Shown: positions 6,799 through 26,762, counted from the stretch's first letter. The stretch: DNA of 32,000 bases from Delftia acidovorans NBRC 14950 (GCF_001598795.1 NZ_BCZP01000020.1:60001-92000), one strand, 5' to 3'. Numbers and translations are program-made. The notes: generated by a model from the sequence alone, not told the origin.

Positions 6799-7797
6799 AT
6801 GTCCATTGCCTATTCCGAATCCGCGCCCCTGGCTGAAGCGCCAGTGGTCAACACGGTCGCCACCGTAGATACCTCACGCAGCGGCGTTTCATGGGCCGCG
6901 ATATTTGCCGGCGCCATGGCGGCGGCATCGCTGTCGCTGCTGCTGTTCATTCTGGGCACAGGCCTGGGCCTGTCGTCGGTGTCGGTATGGTCCGGTGAAG
7001 GCCTGGATGCAGGCGCCCTGGGCCTGACGGCCGTGGCATGGATCGCCTTCACCCAGCTGGCCTCGGCCGGCGTGGGCGGCTATCTGGCCGGGCGGCTGCG
7101 CACACGCTGGCAAGGCGTGCACACGGACGAGGTCTACTTCCGCGATACGGCCCACGGCTTTCTGTCCTGGGCACTGGCCACGCTGGCCATGGTGGCCCTG
7201 ATGGGCGCCGCTGCAGGCGGTGCCGTCTCCGGCGCCTTCAAGGCAGCGCAGACCGTGGCCACCAGCGCCTCCAACGTGGTGGGCGGCGCGATCGGCGCCG
7301 CCGGCGGTGCAGCTGCAGGCGGTGCCGCAGCCATGGCCGGTGCCTCGGGCGCCGATGCCTCGCCCCAGGGCCTGGTCTACTGGACCGGCAGCCTGTTCCG
7401 CAATTCAGGCGCCGCTACCTCCACCAGCAATGCCACCCCCGCCGACCTGGCCAGCGCCACCCGCGAGGCCGGCGTGATCTTTGCCCAGTCGCTGCGCACC
7501 GGCCAGCTGTCTCCCGCAGACGAGCAATACCTGGCCCAGCTGATTGCGCGCAATTCCGATATGTCCGTGGAAGATGCGCAAAAGAAAGTGCGTAGCACCT
7601 TTGATTCCGTGCAAATGCAGATAAAGCAGGCCGAGCAAAAGGCTGAAGAAGCCAAGCAAAAGGCCAAGCAGGCTGCTGAAGAGGCGCGCAAGGCCACGGC
7701 CCATTCCATGCTCTGGCTGTTTGTTTCGCTGATGCTGGGCGCTTTTGTGGGCAGCCTGTGCGCCACCTGGGGTGGTCGTCAACGCGATGCCTTTTGA
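6799..7797 (+). CDS. Hypothetical integral membrane protein with Gly/Ala-rich segment and Lys/Glu/Ala-rich helix before a C-terminal TM
   Basis: MSIAYSES start. Hydrophobic spans include AAIFAGAMAAASLSLLLFILGTGLGL, then a GGAIGAAGGAAAGGAAAMAG tract, a QIKQAEQKAEEAKQKAKQAAEEARK helix, and a terminal TM (MLWLFVSLMLGAFVGSL). No family name could be recognised with confidence. Confidence 0.7.
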   Translation: MSIAYSESAPLAEAPVVNTVATVDTSRSGVSWAAIFAGAMAAASLSLLLFILGTGLGLSSVSVWSGEGLDAGALGLTAVAWIAFTQLASAGVGGYLAGRLRTRWQGVHTDEVYFRDTAHGFLSWALATLAMVALMGAAAGGAVSGAFKAAQTVATSASNVVGGAIGAAGGAAAGGAAAMAGASGADASPQGLVYWTGSLFRNSGAATSTSNATPADLASATREAGVIFAQSLRTGQLSPADEQYLAQLIARNSDMSVEDAQKKVRSTFDSVQMQIKQAEQKAEEAKQKAKQAAEEARKATAHSMLWLFVSLMLGAFVGSLCATWGGRQRDAF

Positions 7798-7855
7798 TAA
7801 TCCCCGGCACTGAAACCCAATCAATCCAATTCAATCCATTCAACGGAGGCTTGCC

Positions 7856-7927
7856 ATGCGATCCATACTGCTTTTTCTCCTGGGCGTTCCCATTCCCATC
7901 ATCATCCTGATTGCGCTCATCCACTGA
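7856..7927 (+). CDS. 23-aa hydrophobic micro-ORF (MRSILLFLLGVPIPIIILIALIH), below the ORF-track cut-off
   Basis: GGAGG at 7845-7849 lies 6 nt upstream of ATG 7856. The peptide is a single predicted TM helix, and its TGA at 7925-7927 is 11 nt before the ligD ATG. Confidence 0.5.
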   Translation: MRSILLFLLGVPIPIIILIALIH

Positions 7928-7938
7928 CGGATGCCGCC

Positions 7939-10566
7939 ATGCCGGCCACGCGCAGCAAGTCCCAGGCATCCCGCCAGGCCCGCCCCACCAAAGGGGCGGC
8001 CAAGGCGGCGACACCCCAGGCCTCGCTCGCGCTGTACCGGCAAAAGCGCGACTTCACGCGCACACCGGAACCTTCGGCAGAACCTTCCAGTGAGACGATT
8101 GCAGGGCAGCCCGGCGCGGGCGCCCTGCAATTCGTCATTCAAAAGCACTGGGCCAGCCATCTGCACTACGACTTCCGGCTGGAGCTGGACGGCAGCATGA
8201 AAAGCTGGGCCGTGCCCAAGGGCCCCAGCTACGACCCGGCCGACAAGCGCATGGCCGTCCAGGTGGAAGACCACCCCATGGCCTACAACCGCTTCGAGGG
8301 CCAGATTCCACCGGGGCAGTACGGCGCGGGCAAGATCATCATCTGGGACCGTGGCACCTGGCTGCCCGAGGGCGATGCGGCCGAAGGCTATCGCAAGGGC
8401 AAGCTCAAGTTCGAACTGCGAGGCCACAAGCTGCAGGGCCGCTGGACCCTGGTGCGCATGCGCGGCAAGGACGACGCCAAAAAGCCCGCCTGGCTGCTGA
8501 TCAAGGAGCACGACGGCCTGGAACGTGCTGCCAGCGAATTCAACGTGGTCGGGGACATGCCCGACAGCGTGGCCGGCCTTCCCCTGCCCACCGCCACAGC
8601 GCCCGTCACCACACCCGTCACCACGCCCGTCGCTACGCACGTCACCGCGTCCATGCCGCAGAGCATCGCCCCGCAGTTGGCAACCTTGGTGGACCATGCA
8701 CCTGCAGAGGCCGGGCAATGGATCTTCGAGAGCAAGTTCGACGGCTACCGGCTGCTGGCGCGCATCGAGGACGGCGCCGTTCGCCTTTTCACGCGCAACG
8801 GCAAGGACTGGACCACCAAAATGCCCGCCCTGGCCCGCGCCTTTGCCGCACTGCCCCTGCAATCGGGCTGGGTGGATGGCGAGGTGCTGATGCTGGACAG
8901 CGACAGCCGCCCTGACTTCCAGGCCCTGCAAAACGCCTTTGACGGCGAGCGCACCGACCACCTGGTGTTCTTCGCGTTTGACCTGCTGTGGCATGACGGC
9001 CAGGACCTGCGGCCCCAGCCCGTGGAGCAGCGCCGCCAGCAGTTGCAGGCCCTGCTGCACAAGGCGCCTTCGGACCGCCTTCGTTTCAGCGAGGCCTTTG
9101 ACGCCCCGCCCGCCGACCTGGTGGCCGCCGCCTGCCAGCTGGGCCTGGAGGGCGTGATCGGCAAGCGGCGCGGCAGCGCCTATGCCTCGCGGCGCAGCGC
9201 GGACTGGATCAAGCTCAAGTGCGGCCTGCGCCAGGAATTCGTGATCGCGGGCTACACCGATCCCCAGGGCACGCGCACGGGCCTGGGCGCCCTGGTCCTG
9301 GCCGTGCATGGCGAGGACGGCCAGCTGCGCGCGGCAGGCAAGGTGGGCACGGGGTTCAACAGGCGCACCCTGGCCGACCTGCGCCAGCGCCTGGAGCGCC
9401 TTGCCACCGGCACCTCGCCGCTGGCGGACAGCCGGGGCCTTGGCAGCGGGGTGCACTGGGTGCGCCCCACGCTGCTGGCCGAGGTCTCGTTCGCGCAGTG
9501 GACCGAGGACGGCCAGGTCCGCCATGCCGTATTCCAGGGCCTGCGTGCGGACAAGCCTGCACGCAGCATTGTCAAAGAGGAGCCACAGCACGTGCCATCG
9601 ACCGCATCTTCCGCCAGCGCTGCCGCCACGCCTGGCGCTGCACGAACGCAAACCCGCCATGCCAGGGCGGCGCGACTGCCCGCCTCGATGACCATCACCC
9701 ATCCCGAGCGGGTCATCGATCCCTCCACCGGCATCACCAAGATGGATCTGGCGCGCTACTACGCCACGGTGGCGCCCTTCATGATCACCCACCTCAAGTC
9801 CCGCCCCGTGGCCATGGTGCGGGCGCCGGACGGCATCGAGGGCGAGCTGTTCTTCCAAAAGCACCTCGACCAGGCGCCGCTGCAGGGCATCGCCGCCCTG
9901 TCGCCGGAACTGGACCCCGGCCATGCTCCGCTGATGGAGGTGTCCCGGCGCGAAGGCCTGGTGGCGGCGGCGCAGATGAACACCATCGAATGGCACACCT
10001 GGAACGCGCGCAAGGACCGCATCGACCGGCCCGATCGCATGACCTTCGACCTGGACCCGGGCGAAGGCGTGCCCTGGCAGCAGGTGCAGGAGGCCGCCAG
10101 CCTGCTGCATGTGCTGCTGCAGGAGCTGGAGCTGCCGGCCTTCCTCAAGACCAGCGGCGGCAAGGGCCTGCACGTGGTCGTACCCATCAAGCGGCTGCTG
10201 GACTGGGACACCGTCAAGGCCTTCTCGCAGGCCGTGGTCCAGCACTTGGCCCATGCCGTGCCCCAGCGCTTCGTGGCCAAAAGCGGGCCGCGCAACCGCG
10301 TGGGAAAGATTTTTGTGGACTACCTGCGCAACGGCTTCGGCGCCACCACGGCCTGCGCGTGGACGGCCCGGGCGCGGCCGGGCATGGGCATCTCCGTGCC
10401 CGTGGCCTGGAACGAGCTGGACAGGCTCACGGGCGGCGCGCACTGGACCATTCGCTCGGTAGACCAGCGCCTGCGCCTGGGCAACTCCCCCTGGGAGCAC
10501 TACGGCACGGCCGCCGTGGGCCTGGGCCGCGCCATGAAGGCGCTGGGCTTCGAGGCGCAGCGCTGA
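7939..10566 (+). CDS. ligD: Multifunctional NHEJ enzyme LigD (3'-phosphoesterase - ATP-dependent ligase - polymerase/primase)
   Basis: N-terminal PE motif FVIQKHWASHLHYDFRLEL...SWAVPKGPS. Ligase motif I ESKFDGYR. C-terminal Pol domain ITHPERVIDP...FFQKH...TFDLDPGEGV...KTSGGKGLHVVVP. The domain order PE-Lig-Pol is as I recall it for Pseudomonas LigD. Confidence 0.95.
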   Translation: MPATRSKSQASRQARPTKGAAKAATPQASLALYRQKRDFTRTPEPSAEPSSETIAGQPGAGALQFVIQKHWASHLHYDFRLELDGSMKSWAVPKGPSYDPADKRMAVQVEDHPMAYNRFEGQIPPGQYGAGKIIIWDRGTWLPEGDAAEGYRKGKLKFELRGHKLQGRWTLVRMRGKDDAKKPAWLLIKEHDGLERAASEFNVVGDMPDSVAGLPLPTATAPVTTPVTTPVATHVTASMPQSIAPQLATLVDHAPAEAGQWIFESKFDGYRLLARIEDGAVRLFTRNGKDWTTKMPALARAFAALPLQSGWVDGEVLMLDSDSRPDFQALQNAFDGERTDHLVFFAFDLLWHDGQDLRPQPVEQRRQQLQALLHKAPSDRLRFSEAFDAPPADLVAAACQLGLEGVIGKRRGSAYASRRSADWIKLKCGLRQEFVIAGYTDPQGTRTGLGALVLAVHGEDGQLRAAGKVGTGFNRRTLADLRQRLERLATGTSPLADSRGLGSGVHWVRPTLLAEVSFAQWTEDGQVRHAVFQGLRADKPARSIVKEEPQHVPSTASSASAAATPGAARTQTRHARAARLPASMTITHPERVIDPSTGITKMDLARYYATVAPFMITHLKSRPVAMVRAPDGIEGELFFQKHLDQAPLQGIAALSPELDPGHAPLMEVSRREGLVAAAQMNTIEWHTWNARKDRIDRPDRMTFDLDPGEGVPWQQVQEAASLLHVLLQELELPAFLKTSGGKGLHVVVPIKRLLDWDTVKAFSQAVVQHLAHAVPQRFVAKSGPRNRVGKIFVDYLRNGFGATTACAWTARARPGMGISVPVAWNELDRLTGGAHWTIRSVDQRLRLGNSPWEHYGTAAVGLGRAMKALGFEAQR
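8602..8649 (+). repeat. 4 x 12-bp imperfect in-frame tandem repeat in the LigD PE-ligase linker
   Basis: The units CCCGTCACCACA / CCCGTCACCACG / CCCGTCGCTACG / CACGTCACCGCG encode PVTT PVTT PVAT HVTA. Confidence 0.8.
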
Positions 10567-10600
10567 GCACCGTCCTGCAGGAATCGAAGAAAGCAACGCC

Positions 10601-11578
10601 ATGAAGAAAGCCGCCTCCCCCAAATCCAGTCCGTCCACCTCCGCGCGCAGCATGTGGAAGGGCGCCATCAGCTTTGGCCTGGTGCACATTCCCATCGGCC
10701 TGTACGCGGCCACGGCCAGCTCGGACATCGACTTCGACTGGCTGGACAAGCGCAACATGCAGCCCGTGGGCTACAAGCGCATCAACAAGGTCACGGGCAA
10801 GGAGGTGGCCACGGCCGACATCGTCAAGGGCGTGGAATTCGAGGAGGGCCGCTACGTGGTGCTGAGCGCTGAAGAGATTGCCGCCGCCTTTCCCAAGACC
10901 ACGCAGACCATCGAGATCGAGGCCTTTGTCGATGCCCAGGACATCCCCTTCATCTACCTGGAACGCCCCTACTACACCGCCCCCCTGCACCGTGGCGAGA
11001 AGGTCTACGCCCTGCTGCGCGAGGCCCTGCGCAAGAGCAACAAGGTGGGCGTGGCCAAGGTGGTCATCCAGACCAAGCAGCATCTGGCCATCCTGATTCC
11101 CTGCGGCCGGGCGCTGGTGCTCAACCTGCTGCGCTGGGGCGGCGAGATCCGCTCCTTCGAGCAACTGGACCTGCCGCCTCTGGACGCCAAGGCCGCCGGC
11201 ATCAAGAGCGCCGAGATGACCATGGCCATGGCCCTCATCAAGGACATGAGCCAGGCCTGGGACGCCGACCAGTTCCGCAACTCCTTCAGCGAGGAAATCC
11301 ACCAGCTCGTGCAGGCCAAGGCGCACGCGGGCGATGTCCAAAACGTGGAAAAGCAGGAGACCACACCCGCCGCGCCGGCCAACGCGGCCGTGCTGGACCT
11401 GACGGCCCTGCTCAAGAACAGCCTGGGCAAGGGCGCAGGCGGACCATCCGCCACCGCAGCCAAGGAAAAAAATACCGCGTCAACGGTAAAAAATGCAAAG
11501 ACGCCAGCGTCCAGAAAATCGACAAAATCCACAAAAACCCCGGCCAGGGCCCCTGCAAAACGCCCCGCCGCTAAATAA
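10601..11578 (+). CDS. ku: NHEJ DNA end-binding protein Ku
   Basis: MWKGAISFGLVHIPIGLYAAT is the characteristic bacterial Ku N-terminus. The C-terminal tail is Lys/Ala/Pro-rich (KNAKTPASRKSTKSTKTPARAPAKRPAAK). The start may instead be the ATG at 10652. Confidence 0.93.
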   Translation: MKKAASPKSSPSTSARSMWKGAISFGLVHIPIGLYAATASSDIDFDWLDKRNMQPVGYKRINKVTGKEVATADIVKGVEFEEGRYVVLSAEEIAAAFPKTTQTIEIEAFVDAQDIPFIYLERPYYTAPLHRGEKVYALLREALRKSNKVGVAKVVIQTKQHLAILIPCGRALVLNLLRWGGEIRSFEQLDLPPLDAKAAGIKSAEMTMAMALIKDMSQAWDADQFRNSFSEEIHQLVQAKAHAGDVQNVEKQETTPAAPANAAVLDLTALLKNSLGKGAGGPSATAAKEKNTASTVKNAKTPASRKSTKSTKTPARAPAKRPAAK

Positions 11579-11794
11579 CCCCATATTTGGCCTGGCTGCA
11601 TTTTTTACAAAAGCAATTTCATTATAAGAAATACATCCATTTGTACCGACAAAATGGAACAAGACCACTCCATAGCAAATTCCAATGCTTTACCAAAAGT
11701 AATCTTCCAAATATCCTACAAGCCCGCCATTTTCACGGTCGCACAATGAAATTGCAGTGATGACGGCATCGCTGTTTACTTAAGGAGTACGGAA

Positions 11795-12007
11795 ATGACG
11801 CAACAGACCAACAACCCTCAAGGCAACACGGCCAGCAACCAGCAAAACGACAAGAACAAGCAGCAGCAGCAACAGAACAATCCGGGGCAGCAGCAGCAAA
11901 GCAATCCCAACAACCCGAACAATCCCAACCAACAGCAGCAACAGAGCAATCCCCAGCGCAACCAACCAGGGGAACAGCAAAAGCAGGGCAGCCATCAGCA
12001 GCGTTAA
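11795..12007 (+). CDS. 70-aa Gln/Asn-rich, hydrophobic-residue-free low-complexity protein
   Basis: AAGGAG lies 7 nt upstream of the ATG and a strong terminator follows directly downstream, so the gene looks monocistronic. By my count there are 26 Q and 16 N in 70 residues, with repeated NNP/QQQQ blocks. Confidence 0.65.
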   Translation: MTQQTNNPQGNTASNQQNDKNKQQQQQNNPGQQQQSNPNNPNNPNQQQQQSNPQRNQPGEQQKQGSHQQR

Positions 12008-12030
12008 GCTGCCGATAGCGTGAACTGGCA

Positions 12031-12054
12031 AAGGGCCCCCTGGGCCCTTTTTTT
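12031..12054 (+). terminator. Rho-independent terminator after the Q/N-rich gene
   Basis: AAGGGCCC (12031-12038), loop CCT, GGGCCCTT, running into a T-run of seven. Confidence 0.8.
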
Positions 12055-12159
12055 ATCTCCAGAGCTTTGCTGACGATGCCCTTTGGTTCAGCCAATCGCC
12101 TCTTCCAATAATTATTGCCTCATACAACAGGCCATCCTCTTTCTTTCAAGGAGTAAATC

Positions 12160-14247
12160 GTGGCTAAGAAATCCCCTGGTGAAAAGAAATCGTCCAAGCA
12201 ATCCCCCACAGGCCATGGCGGAGAATTACAGCAACAGGCCGACGGACAGCACCCCGGATTGACCACGCAGCAAGGCATTCCGGTCCCTGATAATCAGAAC
12301 TCCCTCACCGCCTGGGAAAAAGGCCCTACGCTGCTGGAAGATTTCATCCTGCGCGAGAAAATCACGCATTTCGACCATGAGCGCATTCCAGAGCGAATCG
12401 TCCATGCACGCGGCACAGGCGCCCACGGTTATTTCCAGCTGACAGATTCGCTGGAGCAATACACCACCGCCAAGGTCCTGACCGAAACCGGCAAGCAAGT
12501 GCCGATCTTTGTGCGCTTCTCCACCGTGGCCGGTGGAGCGGGCTCGGTGGATACCCCGCGCGATGTGCGCGGCTTTGCCATCAAGTTCTATACCGAAGAG
12601 GGCAACTGGGATCTGGTGGGCAACAACATCCCGGTCTTCTTCATCCAGGACGCCATGAAGTTTCCCGACCTGGTCCATGCCGTGAAGATGGAACCCGACC
12701 GGGGCTTTCCGCAGGCCGCCACGGCGCACGACACGTTCTGGGACTTCATCTCCCTCATGCCCGAGTCCATGCACATGGTCATGTGGATCATGAGCGACCG
12801 CACCATCGCGCGCAGCCTGCGCATGATCGAGGGCTTTGGCGTGCACAGCTTCCGGCTGGTCAATGCCCAGGGTGAAAGCACCTTCGTGAAATTCCACTGG
12901 CGGCCTGAGCTGGGCATCCAGTCCACGGTCTGGGACGAGGCCCTCAAGCTGCAGGCCGCAGACAACGACTACCACCGCCGCGACCTGTTCGAGGCCATCG
13001 AGGCGGGCGACTACCCGGCCTGGGAGCTGTGCGTGCAGCTGTTCTCGCAGGAGCAGGCAGACGCCCTGCCCTACGACCACCTGGACCCCACCAAGCTCAT
13101 CCCCGAAGAGGAAATTCCGCTGCGCAAGATCGGCCGCTTCGTGCTGGACCGCTGGCCCGACAACTTCTTCGCCGAGACCGAGCAGGTGGCCTTCTGCCCG
13201 GCCAATATCCCGCCCGGCATCGATTTCAGCAACGACCCGCTGCTGCAGGGCCGCCTGTTCTCGTACCTGGACACCCAGCTGTCGCGCCTGGGCGGGCCCA
13301 ACTTCACGCAGCTGCCCATCAACGCGCCCAAATGCCCGTTCGCCCACCACCAGCGCGACGGCCACATGCAGACCGAGGTGCCCAAGGGCCGCGTGGCCTA
13401 TGAGCCCTCCAGCCTGCAGGCCGACAGCCCGCGCGCCTCGGCAGCCCGCGGCTTGCGGCACTTTGCGCAGCCCGCGCAGGAGGGCGCCAAGGGCCGCATC
13501 CGCCCAGAGAGCTTTGCCGACCACTACAGCCAGGCGCGCATGTTCTACCAAAGCCAGAGCGCGCAGGAGCAGGCCCACATCGCCAGCGCCCTGGTGTTCG
13601 AGCTGTCCAAGGTACAGACGCCGCATGTGCGCTTGGCCGTGGTCGGCCACCTGCAGGTGATAGACGCCGACCTGGCACAGCGCGTGGCCGACGGCCTGGG
13701 CCTGCCCCAGTTGCCGCCTGCCGCCAAGCCTGCCGTGCCCCCGCAAAAGCTGCCGCCCAGCCCGGCCACGCGCATCATCGACCGCATGAAGCCCACCTTG
13801 CAGAGCCGCTGCGTTGCCATCCTGGTGGACGAAGGCTCCAGCGCCAGGCACGTTGCCGCCTTCCACAAGGCGCTGGTGGCGCAAAAGGCCAGCGTGAAGA
13901 TCATTGCGCCCAAGATCGGCGGCGCCACGCTGGACGACGGCAGCCACCTGCCCGCCGACGGCCAGCTGGCCGGATCGCCATCCGCGCAGTTCGATGCCGT
14001 GGTGTCCATCATCACGCTGGAGCGCGGCCAGGCGCTGGCCCGTGAGGCAGCCGCGCAGGACTGGTTCCGCGACGCCTTCGGCCACCTCAAGGCCATTGCC
14101 GCCTGCAAGGCCACGCAGCACATCATGAAGACGGCCGGCATCACACCGGACGAGGGCGTGTTCCCCATCGACAAGCCCGAACCCTTCATCGAAGGCGCCA
14201 AGAAGCGCTTCTGGGCCCGCGAAGCGAAGTTGAGAACGCTGGCCTGA
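12160..14247 (+). CDS. katE: Large-subunit monofunctional catalase HPII
   Basis: GTG start 7 nt after AAGGAG. Active-site region [22 protein letters not shown] and proximal Tyr signature [18 protein letters not shown] are present. The 695-aa length with a C-terminal extra domain is typical of clade-2 (KatE) catalases. Confidence 0.95.
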
Positions 14248-14275
14248 CCCCCCGCCCCGGCGTGCGCCACATCAT

Positions 14276-14290
14276 TGCCACCAGATGGCA
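14276..14290. promoter_or_regulatory. Perfect dyad TGCCA-N5-TGGCA about 60 bp upstream of a -24/-12 motif (candidate activator site)
   Basis: TGCCA (14276-14280), CCAGA, TGGCA (14286-14290). Only its position relative to the promoter motif at 14341 supports a role. Confidence 0.3.
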
Positions 14291-14340
14291 CCGCGCCGGA
14301 CTTCAACCAACCTTGTACCCGGGCCATTTACCTCGGGTCC

Positions 14341-14356
14341 AGGCATGGCGCTTGCC
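14341..14356 (+). promoter_or_regulatory. Sigma-54 type -24/-12 promoter motif (AGGCATGGCGCTTGCC)
   Basis: GG at 14342-14343 and GC at 14354-14355 give exact GG-N10-GC spacing, matching GGCAYG-N4-TTGC of the TGGCACG-N4-TTGC consensus. It lies 54 nt upstream of ATG 14409, in an intergenic region and in the correct orientation. Confidence 0.55.
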
Positions 14357-14408
14357 ACGGCAACACCAAGGCCGGCCCGGCCTGCCACCCCTACAGGAGC
14401 AACTTCCC

Positions 14409-14597: not shown

Positions 14598-14659
14598 GCT
14601 CCGCGCCAGCCAGGGGCAGGGCAGCGAACGCAGACGGCCCCGGCCCTGCCCTGACCTAT

Positions 14660-18086: not shown

Positions 18087-18102
18087 ACGGCCTGCAGGAG
18101 CC

Positions 18103-18118: not shown

Positions 18119-18154
18119 CTTGACCACCAACCGTAACTTTTTCTCAAGGGCAAT
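18113..18154 (+). promoter_or_regulatory. Perfect 11-bp inverted repeat joining the -12 element to the SD region of the YeaQ-like gene
   Basis: ATTGCCCTTGA (18113-18123) and TCAAGGGCAAT (18144-18154) are exact reverse complements separated by 20 nt. The right arm contains the AAGGG SD-like sequence 7 nt from the ATG. Confidence 0.5.
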
Positions 18155-18157
18155 GCC

Positions 18158-18436: not shown

Positions 18437-18454
18437 AAGCGGCCAGGCAGCCTG

Positions 18455-20026: not shown

Positions 20027-20122
20027 GGGATCTTCGGGTAGGGCATCACGCGGCGCCTCCCGTGGAACGGAATTTTGGGCCCCCGGGGGCGGGACCGTGT
20101 GGAAGCTGGTGGACTGGTACAT

Positions 20123-20167
20123 GGCAAAGTTTGCAGAAAACCTTGCGCCCAAACGGCAATTTCTGCC
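20123..20167. promoter_or_regulatory. Two GGCA-N5-TGCC/TGCA dyads 32 bp apart in the HK/rpoN divergent spacer (candidate enhancer/UAS)
   Basis: GGCA AAGTT TGCA (20123-20135) and GGCA ATTTC TGCC (20155-20167). The centres are about three helical turns apart and lie 145-190 bp upstream of the -24/-12 motif at 20310. Confidence 0.35.
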
Positions 20168-20309
20168 GTGGACGCCATGACCGGCCCCGCTGTTCCAGAA
20201 CCGATCCCCCGCAGCGGCGGCAAAACCCTGGGCCCCGTGCCGCCTGCGCAGGGAGACCACAGCAGGTTTCGTGCCCAAAGTGTATCCAGACGATTCGCCG
20301 CCCGCATGG

Positions 20310-20325
20310 CGGCATGGAGCTTGCG
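20310..20325 (+). promoter_or_regulatory. Sigma-54 type -24/-12 promoter motif (CGGCATGGAGCTTGCG) in front of rpoN itself
   Basis: GG at 20311-20312 and GC at 20323-20324. The GGCATGG-N-GCTTGC core is nearly identical to the 14341 site. It lies 31 nt upstream of ATG 20355. Confidence 0.5.
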
Positions 20326-20354
20326 TCTTCGGGTCATCGCACCAAGGAGATGAA

Positions 20355-21917
20355 ATGGGTTCCATGCACCTCAGGGCGGACATACGCCAGTCCCAGACGC
20401 TTTCTCCCCGCCTGCAGCTTGCAGTGCGGATGCTGCAGATGTCCTCGCTGGACTTTGCCGCCGTGGTGCGCAGCAAGCTGGAGGACAACCCGTTCCTGGA
20501 AGACCCGCAAGATGCGCAGGACGGCGAGTACGAACAGGGGCTGCTCGACGGCAAGGAGCTGGGTGAAGAGGACCGGGAAGGCGGCATGGGCAGGCTGGCC
20601 CCGGAGGCAGGCCTGGCCCCGGACACGGGCATGGATGACGGCATCGGCATGGGCATCGGTCTGGACATGGACCGCGATCTCCCCGGCATGCAGCACCCGC
20701 CCGACCCGGCCGACCACCTGCCCGGCCCCGCCACCGAACCCGCCGACGACCGCGACCTGTGGCTGGCCGACATGCATACCGGCGCGCGCCAGGGGGTGGA
20801 TGGAGAAGGCACCGCCATGGATCTGGCGGCCTGCGAGACCACGCTGGCCATGCACCTGCACGGCCAGCTCAATGTGATGACGATGACGCCGCGCGACCTG
20901 TGCATGGCCCGCGCCATCGTGGAGTCGCTGGACGACGACGGCTATCTGCGCACCGACCTGCAGGAGCTGGCCGGCCTGCTGGCCCTCACCCCCGCACCTG
21001 ACGCGCAGGAAATGCTCATTGCCCTGCGCCTGGTGCAATCGCTGGACCCGGCCGGCGTGGCCGCCCGCAGCGTGGGCGAATGCCTGTTGCTGCAATGCCC
21101 GCAGATCGGCGATGCCCACCTGCGCCAGCTGGCCCAGGCCATGGTGCAGGACCACATGGATGCGCTGGCCGCCCGCGACGTGCCCCGGCTGGCCCGGGCG
21201 CTGCAGGTGCCACCCGCGCAGATCACGCAGGCGCTGGACTGCATACGTCGGCTGAACCCCAGGCCGGGCTGGAACTTCGGCTCCTCCCACGTGGACTACA
21301 TCGTTCCCGACGTGATCGTGCGCCGGGGCCAGAACGGCTGGGACGTGCACCTCAACCCCGCGGTCGTGCCGCGCGTGCGCCTGAACCGCGTCTACGAGCA
21401 GCTGTTTCAGCGCCACCGCCGCAGCGGCCAGAACCAACTGGCCGACCACCTGCAGGATGCGCGCTGGACGGTGCGCAACGTGGAGCAGCGCTTTTCCACC
21501 ATCCTCGACGTGGCGCAGGCCATCGTGCGCAAGCAGCAGCTGTTCCTGGAGTTCGGCGCCATGGCCATGAAGCCGCTGGTGCTGCGCGAGATTGCCGAGG
21601 AAGTGGGCGTGCACGAGTCCACCGTCTCGCGCGTGACCAACAACAAATACATGGCCACGCCCACGGGCGTGTTCGAGCTCAAGCATTTCTTCTCGCGCCC
21701 CATGCTCAGCGCCAGCGGCAATGCCTGCTCGGCCACGGCCATCCGCGAGCTGATCGGCGACATCATCGCGGCCGAGTCCGATGCCCGGCCGCTGTCGGAT
21801 GTTGAAATCGCACGCCAGCTCGGTGCCCAGGGCCTGGTCGTGGCGCGCCGCACCGTCACCAAATACCGCCAGCTGCTGCGCATAGAACCGGCCGACCGGC
21901 GCAGGCGCCACGCCTGA
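20355..21917 (+). CDS. rpoN: RNA polymerase sigma-54 factor (RpoN), non-canonical genomic context (probable second paralogue)
   Basis: AAGGAG lies 5 nt upstream of the ATG. Region I is SQTLSPRLQLAVRMLQMSSLDF...NPFLE, followed by an acidic region II. The C-terminal HTH is EVGVHESTVSRVTNNKYMATPTGVFELKHFF and the RpoN box is ARRTVTKYRQ. Confidence 0.92.
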   Translation: MGSMHLRADIRQSQTLSPRLQLAVRMLQMSSLDFAAVVRSKLEDNPFLEDPQDAQDGEYEQGLLDGKELGEEDREGGMGRLAPEAGLAPDTGMDDGIGMGIGLDMDRDLPGMQHPPDPADHLPGPATEPADDRDLWLADMHTGARQGVDGEGTAMDLAACETTLAMHLHGQLNVMTMTPRDLCMARAIVESLDDDGYLRTDLQELAGLLALTPAPDAQEMLIALRLVQSLDPAGVAARSVGECLLLQCPQIGDAHLRQLAQAMVQDHMDALAARDVPRLARALQVPPAQITQALDCIRRLNPRPGWNFGSSHVDYIVPDVIVRRGQNGWDVHLNPAVVPRVRLNRVYEQLFQRHRRSGQNQLADHLQDARWTVRNVEQRFSTILDVAQAIVRKQQLFLEFGAMAMKPLVLREIAEEVGVHESTVSRVTNNKYMATPTGVFELKHFFSRPMLSASGNACSATAIRELIGDIIAAESDARPLSDVEIARQLGAQGLVVARRTVTKYRQLLRIEPADRRRRHA

Positions 21918-21930
21918 AACCTGGCGTGGT

Positions 21931-21948
21931 GGCAAGCGGCGTGCCTGT
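21931..21948 (+). promoter_or_regulatory. GGCAA-N5-GTGCCTGT motif (GG-N10-GC spacing) downstream of rpoN and upstream of the small-gene cluster
   Basis: GGCAAGCGGCGTGCCTGT lies about 140 nt upstream of ATG 22087 and shares GGCAA and GTGCCTGT with the 15750 site. Confidence 0.35.
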
Positions 21949-22086
21949 CCAAAAGCCTGTCCGGCCCGTCCTGCCAAGCCCCACCGCCGTGCAGCGGCTT
22001 GTCGCTCCCGCAGGGCATGCCTTGTCCGACAGTTGCAGGCCGCCGCCCGGCCTAAGGTGAAAGCTCATGGACTGAAGGAGCCCGCC

Positions 22087-22401
22087 ATGGACAACTCACC
22101 CCGCCGAATGCATGCCCCCCTCGAACGCCAGCGCAGCGAGAACAACCACATCCGCGACGGACGCTGGCCCCTGCGCATTGGCGCACTCACCGCCGCCGTC
22201 GCACTGATCCTGGTGCTGATGTTCAACTTCATGGCCCCCAAGGGCCGGCTGGATGCGCCCAGCGCCACTGGAGCGACTGGAACGCCTTCGCCCTCACCGT
22301 CTCCCGCGACACAGTCCGTGTCGCCGCCCGCGCCTTCCGCCGCGCCGCAGCAGGCTGATCCGGCCACGACGCCTGCCCCCACCTCCACGCCTGCGCGCTG
22401 A
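22087..22401 (+). CDS. Single-pass membrane protein with Pro/Ser/Thr/Ala-rich extracytoplasmic tail
   Basis: GAAGGAG lies 6 nt upstream of the ATG. There is a basic N-terminus, one TM (IGALTAAVALILVLMFNFM), then TGTPSPSPSPATQSVSPPAPSAAPQQADPATTPAPTSTPAR. Confidence 0.55.
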   Translation: MDNSPRRMHAPLERQRSENNHIRDGRWPLRIGALTAAVALILVLMFNFMAPKGRLDAPSATGATGTPSPSPSPATQSVSPPAPSAAPQQADPATTPAPTSTPAR

Positions 22402-22449
22402 GCCGGCATCCACCGCTCATCACCACACACCCCCAAAAGGACACGCACC

Positions 22450-22644
22450 ATGAATCACCCTCTGCCCCACGCACCCAATATTCCCCAGGTGCCGACCACG
22501 CCCAACGACCCAGTGGCCCCCGATGATCCCAACCGCCAGCCCGGCCGCCCGCGCGGGCCCGAGCCCATCGACCCGCCCACCACGGCGCCGCCCATCGAGC
22601 TGCCACCGTCCCCGGAGCAGGAACAGACGCGCAAGGGAGAGTGA
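22450..22644 (+). CDS. 64-aa proline-rich mini-protein
   Basis: AAAAGGA lies upstream of the ATG. The sequence is MNHPLPHAPNIPQVPTTPNDPVAPDDPNRQPGRPRGPEPIDPPTTAPPIELPPSPEQEQTRKGE, and the stop is 1 nt before the next ATG. Confidence 0.5.
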   Translation: MNHPLPHAPNIPQVPTTPNDPVAPDDPNRQPGRPRGPEPIDPPTTAPPIELPPSPEQEQTRKGE

Positions 22645-22645
22645 C

Positions 22646-22846
22646 ATGCCACAAGGTGACAAATCGGCCTATACCGATAAGCAAAAGCGCCAGGCTCGGC
22701 ATATCGAAGACAGCTACGAGTCGCGCGGCGTGGGCCACGAAGAAGCTGAAAAGCGCGCCTGGGCCACCGTGAACAGGCAAAGCGGCGGCGGCAAGCTGTC
22801 GGGCTCGGGCCGGGGCAGGCAAGCGGGCCAGTCCAAGTCAAAATAA
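22646..22846 (+). CDS. 66-aa highly charged hydrophilic protein (conserved-looking KxYTDKQKRQAxHIE...RAWATVN core, Gly/Ser/Lys tail)
   Basis: GGGAGAG SD precedes the ATG and the gene is tightly coupled to the preceding ORF. MPQGDKSAYTDKQKRQARHIEDSYESRGVGHEEAEKRAWATVNRQSGGGK resembles small stress-associated proteins I recall from other proteobacteria, but I cannot name the family with confidence. Confidence 0.65.
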   Translation: MPQGDKSAYTDKQKRQARHIEDSYESRGVGHEEAEKRAWATVNRQSGGGKLSGSGRGRQAGQSKSK

Positions 22847-22901
22847 CCGCGACTGCGGCCAGGCCCGAGACCCGAGACCCGCAATTGCCGTGGGAGAAAG
22901 T

Positions 22902-25900
22902 GTGAACTCAGAAGACAGTTTTCGATTCCTGCCGCAGCGCGGCGAAATGCCGGCACGCGTGCGTTCCCACGACTGGGCGGCCACGCCCCTGGGATCGCCG
23001 GATGGCTGGCCGCAGAACCTGCGCAATGCCGTGAGCCTGGCGCTGGGCTCGCGCTTTCCCATCACCATCTGGTGGGGCGAAGACTTCCGCCTGATCTACA
23101 ACGATGGCTATATCCCCTTCCTGGGAACCAGCAAGCACCCCCAGGCGCTGGGCCAGGCCGGCGCGCACTGCTGGAGCGAGATCTGGAGCGATATCGGCCC
23201 CATGCTGGAAGGCGTGATGCGTACCGGCGAGGCCACCTGGTCCACCGACGCCCGCTACTTCTTCGACCGCGACCTGCCCCAGGAAGAGGTCTTCGTGACC
23301 TTCACCTACGGCCCCATCCTGGCCGATGACGGCGTCACCGTGCAGGGCGTGTTCTGCCCCTGCACCGAGACCACGGAAAAAATCGTCAGCCGCAGGCGCC
23401 TGGAGACGCTGCACCGCCTGGGCATACGCACGCTGGACATGCACAACGCCAGGGACGCCGCCCAGAAAGTCTGCGCCGTGCTGGACGAGAACCCCTACGA
23501 CGTGCCCTTCGCCATCATCTACGAATGCGTGGACACCCCTGCCGCGGGCAGCGCAGGCGCCAGCGGCCCGGCCTTCAGGATGCTCTGCGCCACGGGCATG
23601 GATATGGACATGGAGCTGGCGGCCGACCCCTCGCGCTGGCCGCTGGACCGGGCCGTGCAATCCGATCCATCGGACCGAACGGACCAGGCGCATCAGGCGG
23701 CCCAGCCGGGCCAGCCCGCCAATGTGGAACTGGCGTCCTTGGGCCTGTCCCTGCCCGGCGGCCCCTGGCCCGAGGTCTCGCGTCTGGCGCGCATCGTGCC
23801 TGTGCGCTGGTCGGGCGACGGCCAGGTCTCGGGCGTGATGGTGCTGGGCGTCAGCCCGCGCCGTCCGCTGGATGTGGACTATTGCGCCTTCCTCGACATG
23901 GTGGCAAGCCACACGGGCAGCGTGGTCGCGCACGCCCAGGCCTACGAGCAGGAAGCGCGGCGCGCCAAGGCCCTGGCCGAGGTGGACCACGCCAAGACCG
24001 TGTTCTTCTCCAACGTCAGCCACGAGCTGCGCACCCCGCTGACCCTGATCCTGGGCCCGCTGGAAGATGCCCTGCGCGAGCACGGCGGCCAGGTGCCGGC
24101 CGGGCAGACGCAGATGATCCACCGCAACGCGCTGCGCCTGCAAAAACTGGTCAATGCCCTGCTGGACTTCTCGCGCATCGAGGCCGGGCGCATGCAGGCC
24201 AGCTACGAGCCCACGGACCTGGCCCGCACCACGGCCGAGCTGGCCAGCATGTTCCGCTCGGCCGTGGAGCAAGCCGGCCTGCGGCTGCGCGTGGATTGCC
24301 CGCCGCTGGACGGACCGGTCCATGTGGACCGCGACATGTACGAAAAAATCGTGCTCAACCTGTTGTCCAACGCCTTCAAGTTCACGCTGCAAGGCGAAAT
24401 CGCAGTGGCGCTGCGCGATGTGCCCGATGTGTCCGATGTGTCCGATGCGCACGGCGCGGGCGGGGCCGATGGTGCGGTGGAGCTGTCCGTCACCGACACC
24501 GGATCGGGCATTGCGCCCCAGCACCTGCCCCATCTCTTCCAGCGTTTTCACCGCATTCCCGGCAAGCCGGCCCGCACGCACGAGGGCACGGGCATCGGCC
24601 TGGCCATGGTGCAGGAGCTGGCACGACTGCATGGCGGCACCGTCACGGTCAGCAGCACGGAGGGCGAAGGCAGCCGCTTCACCGTGCGCCTGCCCAGGGG
24701 GCATGCGCATCTTCCGGCCGAGCACCGGCCCGCGCGCCCGCCTGCATCGCACCCGCAGGTGGATGAGGCCCTGCGCTGGCTGCCCGGCGAGCCCGCCCCG
24801 GCTGCCAGCGACGAAGTCAGGCCCATGCAGCGGGACATGCGCGGTACGCAGCCCCCACGCGCCCGCATCGTCTGCGCCGATGACAACGCCGACATGCGCA
24901 GCTACATCGGCCAGTTGCTGGAGCCGCTGTATGAAGTGGAGATCGTGGGCGATGGCCGCGCCGCGCTGGCCAGCATCCACCGCCAGCGGCCCGACCTGGT
25001 GCTGGCCGACGTGATGATGCCCGTGCTCGACGGCTTCGAGCTGCTGCATGCGCTGCGCAGTGACGAGACCACGCGCGCCATTCCCGTCATCATGCTGTCC
25101 GCGCGGGCCGGCCAGGAGGCCCAGGTCGAAGGCCTGCGCGCGGGCGCGGACGACTACCTGGTCAAGCCCTTTTCGGCGCGCGAGTTGCTGGCGCGCATCG
25201 CATCGCTGCTGCAGCTGGTGCGTGTGCGCGAACAGGTCCACGCCGCCGTGCAGGCCAACGAGAAAAAGCTGCGCGCCATCATCGACCAGATGCCTGCGGG
25301 CGTGGGCGTCTCCGACATGAGCGGCACCATGGTATTGAGCAATGCGCTCATGGACCGCTTCGTGCCGCGCGCCATTCCGTCCACCCTGGCGGACCGCCTG
25401 CCGCGCTGGAAGGGATGGGATGACAAGGGCCAGCCCATTGCCCCCGAGAACTGGCCCGGCAAGCGCGCGCTGCGCGGCGAAGTGGTCATGCCGGGTCTGG
25501 AGATGCTGCACACCGACGACGATGGCCGCGAATGGTGGATGCGCGTCAGCTGCGCGCCGCTGCGCGATGACGACGGCCAGCTCATAGGCACCTGCTCCGT
25601 CATACAGGACATCACCGAACTCAAACAGGCCGAGTACCACCTCAAGGAAGCCGACCGACGCAAGGACGAATTCCTGGCCACGCTGGCGCATGAGCTGCGC
25701 AATCCGCTGGCGCCCATCAGCCACGGCCTGCAAATCCTCAAGCGCACCGCCAGCGGCGACGACAGCGTGCGCCACAGCCACGAGATGCTGGAGCGCCAGG
25801 TCAACCACATGATCCGCATGGTGGACGACTTGCTGGAGGTCTCGCGCATCACCACGGGCAAGGTCCAGTTGCGCAAGGAACTGGTGGATCTGAACGATGT

Positions 25901-26762
25901 GCTGCAAGGCGTGGTGGCGGCCAGCGGCGCGGTCATGGAGGCAGGCAGCCACCAGTTGCGCCTGGAGCTGCCCGCCGCGCCCGTATCGCTGCTGGCCGAC
26001 CCGATGCGGCTGGCGCAGATGGTCTCCAACCTGCTCAACAATGCCGCCAAGTACTCGCACTCCGGCGGCCACATCGTTCTGTCCGCCTGGACCGATGGCG
26101 CGCAGGCCGTGGTCTCGGTACGCGACAACGGCATCGGCATCCCGCCCGCCCTGCTGGGCAAGGTGTTCGATCTGTTCATGCAGGTGGACCGCAACGGCCG
26201 CCGTGGGCAGGGCGGCCTGGGCATCGGGCTGACCCTGGTGCGCAGCCTGGTCGAGATGCACGGCGGCAGCGTGCAGGCGCTCAGCGGAGGCAAGGGCCAG
26301 GGCAGCGAATTCAGGCTGCACCTGCCCCTGCCCACCCAGGCGCAGCCCCTGGCGGGACAGGCACCAAATGCCCAGCCCGAGGATGCAACGGCCTTCGGCC
26401 GCATCCTGGTGGTCGATGACAACATCGACGCCGCCGACACCCTGGCCATGCTGCTCAGGCTGCTGGGCGCCGAAGTCGAGATTGCCCGCGACGGCCCCGG
26501 CGCCCTGGCCATGCACGCGGCGTTCAGGCCCGAAGTGGTGCTGCTGGACATCGGCCTGCCCGGCATGGACGGCCTGGAGGTCGCCCGCCGCATCCGTGCC
26601 GAGCACGGCCGCGACCAGGTCGTGCTGATCGCGCTCACGGGCTGGGGGCAGGAGGAGGACCTGAGACGATCGCGGGAAGCCGGCATGGACCACCACCTGG
26701 TCAAACCCGTGAGCTTCGACACGCTCGAGCGTCTGCTGGCGGGCCTGCGTCCCCTGCCGTGA
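22902..26762 (+). CDS. Hybrid sensor with two complete transmitter-receiver units (PAS/GAF-like sensor - HisKA/HATPase - REC - PAS - HisKA/HATPase - REC)
   Basis: GTG 22902 lies 5 nt after GGGAG (alternative GTG at 22890). Unit 1: SHELRTPL, LNLLSNAFKF, DTGSGI, GTGIGLAMV, then REC (VLADVMMPVLDG, YLVKPF). A PAS domain follows (IIDQMPAGVGVSD). Unit 2: AHELRNPL, NLLNNAAKYS, DNGIGI, GGLGIGLTLV, then REC (VLLDIGLPGMDG, HLVKPV). Confidence 0.9.
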   Translation: MNSEDSFRFLPQRGEMPARVRSHDWAATPLGSPDGWPQNLRNAVSLALGSRFPITIWWGEDFRLIYNDGYIPFLGTSKHPQALGQAGAHCWSEIWSDIGPMLEGVMRTGEATWSTDARYFFDRDLPQEEVFVTFTYGPILADDGVTVQGVFCPCTETTEKIVSRRRLETLHRLGIRTLDMHNARDAAQKVCAVLDENPYDVPFAIIYECVDTPAAGSAGASGPAFRMLCATGMDMDMELAADPSRWPLDRAVQSDPSDRTDQAHQAAQPGQPANVELASLGLSLPGGPWPEVSRLARIVPVRWSGDGQVSGVMVLGVSPRRPLDVDYCAFLDMVASHTGSVVAHAQAYEQEARRAKALAEVDHAKTVFFSNVSHELRTPLTLILGPLEDALREHGGQVPAGQTQMIHRNALRLQKLVNALLDFSRIEAGRMQASYEPTDLARTTAELASMFRSAVEQAGLRLRVDCPPLDGPVHVDRDMYEKIVLNLLSNAFKFTLQGEIAVALRDVPDVSDVSDAHGAGGADGAVELSVTDTGSGIAPQHLPHLFQRFHRIPGKPARTHEGTGIGLAMVQELARLHGGTVTVSSTEGEGSRFTVRLPRGHAHLPAEHRPARPPASHPQVDEALRWLPGEPAPAASDEVRPMQRDMRGTQPPRARIVCADDNADMRSYIGQLLEPLYEVEIVGDGRAALASIHRQRPDLVLADVMMPVLDGFELLHALRSDETTRAIPVIMLSARAGQEAQVEGLRAGADDYLVKPFSARELLARIASLLQLVRVREQVHAAVQANEKKLRAIIDQMPAGVGVSDMSGTMVLSNALMDRFVPRAIPSTLADRLPRWKGWDDKGQPIAPENWPGKRALRGEVVMPGLEMLHTDDDGREWWMRVSCAPLRDDDGQLIGTCSVIQDITELKQAEYHLKEADRRKDEFLATLAHELRNPLAPISHGLQILKRTASGDDSVRHSHEMLERQVNHMIRMVDDLLEVSRITTGKVQLRKELVDLNDVLQGVVAASGAVMEAGSHQLRLELPAAPVSLLADPMRLAQMVSNLLNNAAKYSHSGGHIVLSAWTDGAQAVVSVRDNGIGIPPALLGKVFDLFMQVDRNGRRGQGGLGIGLTLVRSLVEMHGGSVQALSGGKGQGSEFRLHLPLPTQAQPLAGQAPNAQPEDATAFGRILVVDDNIDAADTLAMLLRLLGAEVEIARDGPGALAMHAAFRPEVVLLDIGLPGMDGLEVARRIRAEHGRDQVVLIALTGWGQEEDLRRSREAGMDHHLVKPVSFDTLERLLAGLRPLP
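24417..24452 (+). repeat. 4 x 9-bp in-frame tandem repeat inside the first HATPase domain of the hybrid kinase
   Basis: The units GATGTGCCC / GATGTGTCC / GATGTGTCC / GATGCGCAC encode DVP DVS DVS DAH. Confidence 0.8.

Follow-up and report, generated by a model that had tools for sequence, protein, structure and literature searches.

A second sigma-54 gene of the RpoN2 type in Delftia acidovorans and the stress-type regulon that it probably heads

It has previously been reported that some Burkholderiales possess two sigma-54 variants (Francke 2011, PMC3162934). Such RpoN2-type paralogues have been known in this order for 15 years and their role is not agreed upon, with no phenotype in Ralstonia and one target in Burkholderia pseudomallei. 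In Ralstonia, the promoter of rpoN2 was canonical and its transcription required rpoN1 (PMC4371752), while RpoN2 was unable to replace RpoN1 for most functions (PMC4676750). In B. pseudomallei, katE transcription and activity were lost at 48-72 h in an rpoN2 mutant, and an RpoN box was reported before katE (PMC4745423). A 2025 survey found rpoN genes behind sigma-54 promoters to be enriched in Proteobacteria. Here we describe an rpoN gene of this type in a chromosomal stretch of 32,000 nt from Delftia acidovorans NBRC 14950 (GCF_001598795.1 NZ_BCZP01000020.1:60001-92000; the window), where it lies near genes for an NtrC-type enhancer-binding protein (EBP), sensor kinases and stress proteins.

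We concluded that the window rpoN encodes a second, specialised sigma-54 of the RpoN2 type heading a stress or stationary-phase regulon, with a probability of roughly 0.6. A model reading of the DNA alone (the sequence-only reading) had proposed here a self-contained and possibly undescribed sigma-54 module controlling persistence or desiccation functions. Genes were mapped by GC3-guided selection of open reading frames (ORFs), Pfam and NCBIfam scans, and public NCBI gene calls on identical contigs. The NCBI calls agreed with our map, including the mini-ORFs of 70, 62, 104, 64 and 66 aa, and the gene inventory of the sequence-only reading (LigD-Ku, KatE, TopIB, EBP, YeaQ/GlsB, kinases, rpoN and mini-ORFs) was borne out by Pfam, NCBIfam and the gene calls.

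The window RpoN contained the three sigma-54 domains (PF00309, E=3.6e-13; PF04963, E=6e-56; PF04552, E=7.5e-57) and the RpoN box ARRTVTKYR. It scored above the cut-offs of the generic model TIGR02395 (410 vs 277 bits) and the NCBIfam subfamily NF009118 (501 vs 396 bits), and below the equivalog cut-offs of NF004598 (479 vs 621 bits) and NF004595 (478 vs 513 bits). An identical protein was present on several Delftia assemblies, e.g., GCA_000741825.1 (contig KN046795.1). Upstream of the gene lay not lptB but a divergent gene for a histidine-kinase-like (HK-like) protein, and downstream a 104-aa ORF. With a Comamonas nitrativorans representative as query we retrieved the canonical RpoN of Delftia sp. 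PS-11, which was located in an argS-dsbA-lptA-lptB-rpoN context and was 42% identical to the window RpoN; the canonical rpoN of Acidovorax and Comamonas had the same lptA-lptB-linked context. D. acidovorans SPH-1 had two RpoN accessions, as did B. pseudomallei, and Diaphorobacter, Variovorax, Leptothrix and Methylibium had one each (Francke et al. 2011, supplementary table 1, PMC3162934). A scan of one genome per species yielded 80 related loci whose RpoN shared 50-93% identity with that of the window. They belonged to Delftia, Comamonas, Acidovorax, Ottowia, Hydrogenophaga, Roseateles/Mitsuaria/Pelomonas, Rubrivivax, Ideonella, Aquabacterium and many metagenome-assembled genomes, and in none of the 80 was an LptA or LptB homologue found beside the paralogous rpoN. 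By sequence and gene context, then, the window rpoN is an RpoN2-type paralogue and not the housekeeping copy, as the sequence-only reading had supposed from its position outside the lptB neighbourhood. It was not the only rpoN at the level of the genus, nor was its neighbourhood peculiar to the strain, since homologous neighbours occurred across the 80 loci.

Orthology with the RpoN2 proteins of Ralstonia and Burkholderia was a possibility. The window RpoN was 42-49% identical to them, and in a neighbour-joining tree of 50%-identity representatives, which carried no support values, all three fell into one large star-like half apart from the canonical beta- and gammaproteobacterial RpoN. In its layout the locus resembled the described RpoN2 modules: a sigma-54 promoter preceded the window rpoN, with an equivalent in 73 of 81 loci, and a homologous NtrC-type EBP and a hybrid sensor kinase lay beside it. 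The window EBP shared 57% identity with a Ralstonia EBP and 44% with one of Burkholderia FXe9, each located next to rpoN2, and kinase homologues were present in both of these loci. The genes at the centre of the window were the following.

14409-14597, plus strand: 62-aa proline-rich mini-protein (Pro62), upstream of TopIB
14672-15730, plus strand: bacterial TopIB (Pfam Top1B_N_bact and Topoisom_I; gene call)
15863-17494, plus strand: NtrC-type EBP with receiver (REC), AAA+ and helix-turn-helix (HTH) domains (Pfam)
17559-18086, plus strand: p175, a 175-aa conserved protein without family
18158-18436, plus strand: YeaQ/GlsB-type small membrane stress protein (Pfam Transgly_assoc, 24.5 bits, slightly below the cut-off)
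18455-20122, minus strand: membrane-anchored HK-like protein, divergent from rpoN
20355-21917, plus strand: RpoN paralogue, 520 aa (Pfam AID, CBD and DBD)

The sigma-54 promoter motif GGCAYGNNNNTTGC (GGCAYG-N4-TTGC) had five exact matches in the window. In 100 dinucleotide shuffles 0.39 +/- 0.58 matches were expected, and no shuffle reached five; the fifth match was on the minus strand and new. Chance was rejected as their origin by these shuffles and, for the wider set of loci below, by Markov simulations. The four intergenic motifs pointed out in the sequence-only reading were present and correctly oriented, 30-53 nt before ATG codons, with their coordinates given one base too low. They started at 14342, 17507, 18104 and 20311 on the plus strand and ended 53, 38, 40 and 30 nt, respectively, before the ATG codons of Pro62, p175, yeaQ and rpoN, each of which was preceded by a ribosome-binding site (RBS). 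The first promoter preceded not TopIB directly but the Pro62 ORF ahead of it. The TopIB domains were located within an ORF at 14285-15730, with the true start at about 14672, and Pro62 was probably the first gene of a Pro62-TopIB(-EBP) operon. The promoters fell into two classes according to the base after TTGC (position -11): TTGCG before rpoN (class I), and TTGCC at the other three plus-strand sites and at both minus-strand sites (class II). Scores refer to a position weight matrix (PWM) built from the related genomes.

14342-14356, plus strand: class II sigma-54 promoter GGCATGGCGCTTGCC, C at -11, 53 nt before the ATG at 14409; PWM score 22.9
17507-17521, plus strand: class II sigma-54 promoter GGCACGCTGCTTGCC, 38 nt before the ATG at 17559; PWM score 20.8; conserved in loci L007 and L008
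18104-18118, plus strand: class II sigma-54 promoter GGCACGCCGATTGCC, 40 nt before the ATG at 18158; PWM score 22.8
20311-20325, plus strand: class I sigma-54 promoter GGCATGGAGCTTGCG, G at -11, 30 nt before the rpoN ATG; PWM score 11.6
15750-15764, minus strand: promoter-like element GGCACAGTGTTTGCC, A at motif position 6, between the TopIB stop and the EBP start
21931-21945, minus strand: perfect class II promoter-like element GGCACGCCGCTTGCC, 14 nt past the rpoN stop and antisense into rpoN

The element at 15750-15764 was aimed antisense into TopIB and recurred at the same position in three genera (L007:5466, L008:5228, L011:6772 and L013:1618). In L011 and L013 it was followed by AAGGAG and a tiny ORF; since no ORF was evident in Delftia, its role there may be to express a small RNA, an antisense transcript or a micro-ORF. 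The element at 21931-21945 adjoined a hairpin (CCACGCC...GGCGTGG) and was kept in D. acidovorans (L007) and not in D. tsuruhatensis (L008). Other genera had a convergent gene on the minus strand here, so it may be a promoter left stranded, the relic of a lost gene; alternatively, it may be an antisense promoter acting as a paralogue-dependent brake on rpoN.

Promoters of this kind were conserved and strongly enriched around the paralogue in related bacteria, which supported the sequence-only reading. We surveyed 81 non-redundant loci (1.50 Mb) from Comamonadaceae, Roseateles, Hydrogenophaga and Rubrivivax, in which GGCA[CT][GA]-N4-TTGC matched 344 times, as compared with 22.6 +/- 5.5 matches expected from second-order Markov simulations. 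Plausible ORF starts lay at most 200 nt downstream of 308 of 351 motif matches. These ORFs were clustered and annotated with Pfam. The largest cluster was the rpoN paralogue itself (73 of 81 loci), and the others were as follows.

DUF883/ElaB-like membrane-anchored proteins: 36 promoters in 35 loci
Single-domain response regulators: 29 promoters
YeaQ/GlsB: 16 promoters, in 16 loci
BON lipoproteins: 12 promoters
Hemerythrins: 11 promoters across 9 loci
An unnamed membrane protein: 11 promoters
Crp/Fnr regulators: 9 promoters
Phospholipase D (PLD)/cardiolipin-synthase-like enzymes: 7 promoters
p175: 6 promoters, in 6 loci
Pro-rich mini-proteins: 6 promoters in six other genomes
Further clusters: GT4 glycosyltransferases, PRC-barrel proteins, CsbD, DUF2383 ferritin-like proteins and short-chain dehydrogenases/reductases (SDR)

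A repertoire of this kind (KatE, OsmY/BON, ElaB/YqjD, YeaQ, CsbD and others) is that of the RpoS, EcfG and SigB general stress regulons. Moreover, class II promoters preceded Ku-LigD in L026, LigD in L012 and TopIB in L045, so that genes of DNA repair and topology would belong to the regulon in some genomes. Judging from the promoters and the genes behind them, a sigma-54 stress regulon centred on the paralogue was probable.

The two promoter classes held across the loci. Before rpoN the base at -11 was G in 48 cases, A in 24, T in one and C in none (n=73), whereas C occupied this position in 203 of 235 other promoters, with 34% C expected by chance (Fisher p ~1e-45), and the split ran across more than 20 unrelated gene families. 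Class I took the form yGGCAYGG-nn[G/C]-TTGC[G/A], with the textbook TGGCAC-N5-TTGCA in several lineages; class II took the form GGCACG-CCG[A/C]-TTGCC, in which T at -26 was rare. The sigma-54 proteins were divided as well. Between 73 paralogues and 119 canonical Comamonadaceae proteins there were 37 fixed differences, including the HTH recognition helix (HESTVSRVTNNKY in the paralogue, HESTISRVTTAKY in the canonical protein) and the RpoN box (ARRTVTKYRQ vs ARRTVAKYRE). Region I also differed from the canonical one, the paralogue having QTLSPRLQhAVRLLQMSSLDF. In Cereibacter sphaeroides, discrimination between RpoN1 and RpoN2 involves position -11 (PMC11999139; Francke 2011). A housekeeping control promoter of Delftia, taken from the side of the rtc locus that RtcR controls, was canonical (TGGCACGTATCTCGCA).

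The neighbourhood of the paralogue was conserved to different degrees. Counts were obtained by tblastn within +/-10 kb of the paralogue in the 80 loci.

HK-like protein homologue: 34/80 loci
p175 homologue: 25/80 loci
TopIB: 22/80 loci
YeaQ: 19/80 loci
KatE: 13/80 loci
Orthologous EBP, AAA+ domain 71-98% identical: 12/80 loci
Ku: 4/80 loci
LigD: 2/80 loci

The 70-aa Gln/Asn-rich ORF, the 104-aa and 64-aa ORFs and, essentially, the double hybrid kinase were Delftia-specific and thus outside the conserved core. Genes called near the paralogue of Rubrivivax gelatinosus, Hydrogenophaga sp. YM1 and one Roseateles strain included YeaQ, a holin_3_6-type protein, the Blc lipocalin, DUF2383, a HATPase+REC hybrid kinase and PLD, and further an AI-2E transporter, BON, several hemerythrins, CBS, DUF421, superoxide dismutase, a LigD Prim-Pol domain and the EBP.

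A number of observations weighed against a specialised sigma-54 with a regulon of its own. The co-existence of canonical and paralogous rpoN was seen at the species and genus level (the SPH-1 count and Delftia sp. PS-11). The orthologous EBP lay within 10 kb in 12 of the 80 loci and the hybrid kinase was nearly confined to Delftia, so the label self-contained, given in the sequence-only reading, fitted the module in Delftia and was overstated for the related loci. No shared activator site was found in the 220 nt before the four window promoters when these were searched for common 8-10-mers and inverted repeats; the aligned rpoN upstream region of three Delftia species contained conserved blocks and likewise no interpretable activator site. 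Direct sigma-54 control of ligD, ku and katE was rejected for the window strain by the PWM scan described below. The housekeeping control of the -11 rule was one promoter (n=1). B. pseudomallei rpoN2 complements an Escherichia coli rpoN mutant, restoring amino-acid utilisation, and Ralstonia rpoN2 rescues growth on C4-dicarboxylates (PMC4676750); RpoN2-type factors can therefore read canonical promoters. Finally, the promoters around Ralstonia and Burkholderia rpoN2 had A or G at -11, which makes the C dialect clade-specific at best.

Because of the complementation, the C4-dicarboxylate rescue and the A or G elsewhere, we held the idea that the -11 split reflects two sigma-54 proteins at somewhat less than even odds. 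According to the rival account there is no such dialect: both sigma-54 proteins read all promoters, the EBP gives specificity, C at -11 tunes strength or tightness, and the extra rpoN adds capacity under stress. The three observations just named, together with the single control promoter, speak for this account. However, it leaves unaccounted for the contrast between 0/73 and 203/235 promoters with C across so many families, the fixed substitutions in the HTH recognition helix and the RpoN box, and the failure of Ralstonia RpoN2 to replace RpoN1 for most functions, and we regarded it as rather unlikely. The broadest version of the regulon model was that the general stress response of Comamonadaceae and of Roseateles, Rubrivivax and Hydrogenophaga is run by a cascade from sigma-54 to a second sigma-54, with a private C-at-(-11) dialect before dozens of RpoS/EcfG-like genes; this we put forward tentatively, as a possibility that we would not bet on.

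Another alternative was a loose cluster of stress genes without common control, in which the sigma-54 module governs three or four small genes, while LigD-Ku, KatE and the mini-proteins are under other factors, e.g., an RpoS-type sigma or OxyR. The remaining genes of the window were the following.

15-4658, plus strand: liv-type ABC transporter
4733-6510, plus strand: PfkB/pyridoxal-type kinase and SDR
6796-7797, plus strand: 333-aa membrane protein with Ala/Gly-rich and charged coiled low-complexity regions (ORF and translation)
7939-10566, plus strand: LigD (Pfam 3'-phosphoesterase, ATP-dependent ligase and Prim-Pol domains)
10601-11578, plus strand: Ku (Pfam PF02735, E=3.7e-45)
11795-12007, plus strand: 70-aa Gln/Asn-rich hydrophilic mini-protein in an AT-rich segment, Delftia only
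12160-14247, plus strand: large-subunit (KatE-type) catalase (Pfam Catalase, E=3e-179, and Catalase_C)
22087-22401, plus strand: p104, a 104-aa membrane-anchored Pro/Ser/Thr/Ala-rich protein, Delftia only
22450-22644, plus strand: 64-aa proline-rich mini-protein (Pro64)
22646-22846, plus strand: 66-aa basic hydrophilic Lys/Gly/Ser-rich mini-protein (MPQGDKSAYTDKQKR...)
22902-26762, plus strand: double hybrid sensor kinase, 1286 aa (HisKA-HATPase-REC-PAS-HisKA-HATPase-REC)
Beyond 26762: M20 peptidase, TctC, hemerythrin and Usp

In the PWM scan no site exceeded about 1 bit in front of the 333-aa gene, ligD, ku, the 70-aa ORF, katE, p104, Pro64 or the hybrid kinase. The sigma-54 promoters of the window would thus serve only Pro62-TopIB(-EBP), p175, yeaQ and rpoN, perhaps with the genes downstream of rpoN. 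Since LigD-Ku and KatE lacked a sigma-54 promoter here, they were neighbours and not demonstrated targets, and their inclusion in the regulon by the sequence-only reading was not upheld; the 70-aa gene before katE had its own terminator. A sigma-70 consensus scan of 6400-23000 gave no match. The loose cluster was favoured by these missing sites, by the AT-rich flanks and separate terminator of the 70-aa gene, and by the presence of Ku and LigD in only 2-4 of the 80 loci. On the other hand, KatE was near the paralogue in 13 loci, class II promoters stood before Ku-LigD and LigD elsewhere, and katE depends on rpoN2 in B. pseudomallei. This alternative is in agreement with the RpoN2-regulon explanation for the window itself and differs from it only in the extent of the regulon; as a complete account we considered it improbable. 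That the window rpoN is the sole housekeeping gene, moved away from lptB, was hardly credible and was rejected despite the three domains and the TIGR02395 score, given the two RpoN proteins of SPH-1, the lptA-lptB-linked RpoN of Delftia, Comamonas and Acidovorax with only 42% identity, the equivalog cut-offs, the 0/80 loci with lptA or lptB, and a sigma-54-type promoter from which the gene would be unable to start its own expression alone.

Returning to the RpoN2-regulon reading, we infer a scheme for its phosphorylation partners, for the sigma-54 that reads each promoter class, for operon structure and for the inducing signal. The sensor kinases (the HK-like protein and the hybrid kinase) would transfer phosphate to the island's NtrC-type EBP at its REC domain. 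The EBP would then remodel the sigma-54 holoenzyme at the class I promoter of the paralogous rpoN and raise the level of the paralogue; this promoter is probably read by the housekeeping sigma-54, by the precedent of Ralstonia rpoN2. Together with this EBP or a related one, the paralogue would fire the class II promoters (GGCAYG-N4-TTGCC, C at -11). Its targets would be the Pro62-TopIB(-EBP) operon, p175 and yeaQ in the window, and in relatives genes for DUF883/ElaB-like, BON, CsbD, DUF2383, hemerythrin, PRC-barrel, PLD, Crp/Fnr and single-REC proteins. LigD-Ku and KatE would be stress genes that share the location and, in the window strain, have no recognisable sigma-54 promoter. The EBP gene lay downstream of a class II promoter in Delftia and, at a distance of 0.5-1.2 kb, in L015, L018 and L071, so the circuit would be self-reinforcing; this arrangement suggests positive feedback through the EBP.

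The EBP had the features of the NtrC class: Response_reg, Sigma54_activat (E=1e-67), AAA_lid_14 and a Fis-type HTH (HTH_8) in Pfam, a GSFTGA loop at residue 233 and the Walker A motif GESGTGKE. The HK-like protein, a histidine kinase in the sequence-only reading, matched an NCBIfam histidine-kinase subfamily (E=5e-14) and nothing significant in Pfam (HisKA, E=0.11), and it was degenerate. Namely, it kept the H-box SHEFNNQL, had lost the N-box asparagine, had degenerate G-boxes and possessed no receiver domain. It may serve in phosphotransfer only or as a phosphatase only. The corresponding proteins of Rubrivivax, Roseateles and Hydrogenophaga were HATPase+REC hybrids of 700-750 aa. The double hybrid kinase had two HisKA, two HATPase and two REC domains plus PAS in Pfam. 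Because neither a promoter nor a strong terminator lay between them, it was possibly co-transcribed with rpoN.

Several smaller features of the window deserve mention. The G+C content was 63-73% with a dip to ~57-58% at 11-13 kb. The 70-aa ORF was housed in an AT-rich segment at 11580-12160 (~57% G+C vs 67% overall), had a strong RBS and consisted chiefly of Gln, Asn and Pro (MTQQTNNPQGNTASNQQNDKNKQQQQQNN...); an intrinsic terminator of textbook form followed directly at 12030-12050. Its product looks like a hydrophilin-type disordered protein. The 64-aa and 66-aa mini-genes stood back to back with one base between them, preceded by the p104 ORF, and the 66-aa protein had one homologue outside Delftia, 80% identical, at the Acidovorax locus L014. 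The hemerythrin and Usp genes were at 29356-30630, and this hemerythrin had no class II promoter. Pfam and NCBIfam scans assigned no significant family to the mini-proteins, p175, p104 or the 333-aa protein, and the last had no sigma-54 site upstream in the PWM scan. A single-sequence structure prediction of p175 gave a predicted local distance difference test score (pLDDT) of 61.8, with means of ~74-91 for 10-residue blocks of the core. It was consistent, with moderate confidence, with a tandem beta-alpha-beta (ferredoxin/ACT-like) core followed by a disordered acidic tail. A Foldseek search of p175 against the PDB returned no significant neighbour; because the ACT/ferredoxin-like matches were weak (best E=0.07), we gave the protein no function. 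A mobile genomic island was considered and rejected. The window had no tRNA or Rfam match and the scanned ORFs had no integrase or transposase domain, so nothing marked a mobile element; the flanks of the island were conserved across Delftia species.

The canonical rpoN also had an unusual setting. The textbook block is lptB-rpoN-hpf-ptsN. In L092, L095 and L096 (Delftia, Acidovorax and Comamonas) the gene followed lptA-lptB and had no hpf or ptsN behind it, so this block was truncated in the family; rtcR, a thioesterase or a methyl-accepting chemotaxis protein gene lay downstream instead. In Delftia sp. PS-11 (L092:9330-9900) a divergent rtcR came directly after rpoN and adjoined a canonical sigma-54 promoter. 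Beyond this promoter came a non-coding stretch of ~550 nt, in which Rfam gave a tRNA-like match (31.5 bits) and, below gathering, a match to the Y RNA-like YrlA (28.4 bits); Band_7, an unknown gene and rtcB lay after it. Judged by its sequence, the locus looks like an Rsr/Y-RNA-style RNA-repair operon without annotated RNA.

Overall, the sequence-only interpretation stood with respect to the paralogue, its conserved neighbourhood and its promoters, and was unsupported or overstated with respect to novelty, self-containment and the label of persistence or desiccation, the last having been drawn from gene content alone. A module of this kind was not undescribed: RpoN2-type paralogues of Burkholderiales had been published (PMC4371752, PMC4676750), as had the link between RpoN2 and katE (PMC4745423). 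Our search of the literature available to us found no description of a conserved general-stress-type regulon, of a C-at-(-11) signature or of clade-specific DNA-binding substitutions. The RpoN2-type paralogue module is thus of a published kind, while its stress-type regulon, the C-at-(-11) signature and the DNA-binding substitutions appear undescribed. The association with stress genes suggests a function for the "enigmatic" RpoN2-type sigma factors and offers three predictions: a general-stress-type regulon, C at -11 as a mark of targets as opposed to the sigma gene's own promoter, and candidate residues of the HTH and RpoN box that would set specificity.

Sigma-54 promoters need both an activator and ATP, and show no basal activity. 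If the model is true, then an activator-dependent, zero-background sigma-54 system can replace RpoS-type control of survival functions, and built-in positive feedback would suit a switch to a protected state that is all-or-none. The broadest version of the model would add a third, enhancer-dependent way of controlling general stress and would give RpoN2 a function. Orthogonal pairs of sigma-54 and promoter would become available for synthetic biology. The model, if true, would also bear on how Delftia, Comamonas and Acidovorax persist and tolerate desiccation and disinfectants in water systems and clinics.

Among the closest known systems was RpoN2 of Ralstonia solanacearum (RSp1671, on the megaplasmid), which is also a second sigma-54 outside the lptB context with its own sigma-54 promoter. 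EBPs and a hybrid kinase adjoin it (PMC4371752, PMC4676750); the EBPs shared 57% identity with that of the window, and DUF1328 and small membrane or hypothetical genes lay nearby. However, it was only 42% identical to the window RpoN, its local promoters were canonical (TGGCAC..TTGCA), no TopIB, p175 or YeaQ gene adjoined it, and it was assigned no stress regulon or phenotype ("role remains enigmatic"). RpoN2 of B. pseudomallei (chromosome 2) is likewise a paralogous sigma-54 tied to a late stationary-phase stress function, and the Burkholderia rpoN2 locus L088 had an EBP, a kinase, small DUF3008, DUF1328, DUF3022 and DUF1269 proteins and trehalose genes. Unlike in that species, katE of the window had no sigma-54 promoter; the promoters of the Burkholderia rpoN2 area had G at -11, and its RpoN2 complements E. 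coli rpoN.

Further parallels were found outside this order. Cereibacter (Rhodobacter) sphaeroides has several paralogues (RpoN1-RpoN4) with cognate EBPs and a specificity that lies partly at -11, the position that splits the classes here. These paralogues are alphaproteobacterial and not orthologous, control nif, flagella and xrpA, and had their specificity tested experimentally, whereas ours was inferred. In Borrelia burgdorferi, a response-regulator EBP (Rrp2) and sigma-54 turn on a second sigma factor for an adaptive regulon; there the downstream factor is RpoS of the sigma-70 family, whereas here it would be another sigma-54 with an EBP needed at every target. Finally, the regulons of RpoS (Gammaproteobacteria), EcfG (Alphaproteobacteria) and SigB (Firmicutes), to which KatE, OsmY/BON, ElaB/YqjD (DUF883), YeaQ, CsbD, the Blc lipocalin, DUF2383, PRC-barrel proteins and Ku/LigD are generally assigned, were similar in content to the gene set described here and entirely different in promoter class and sigma family.

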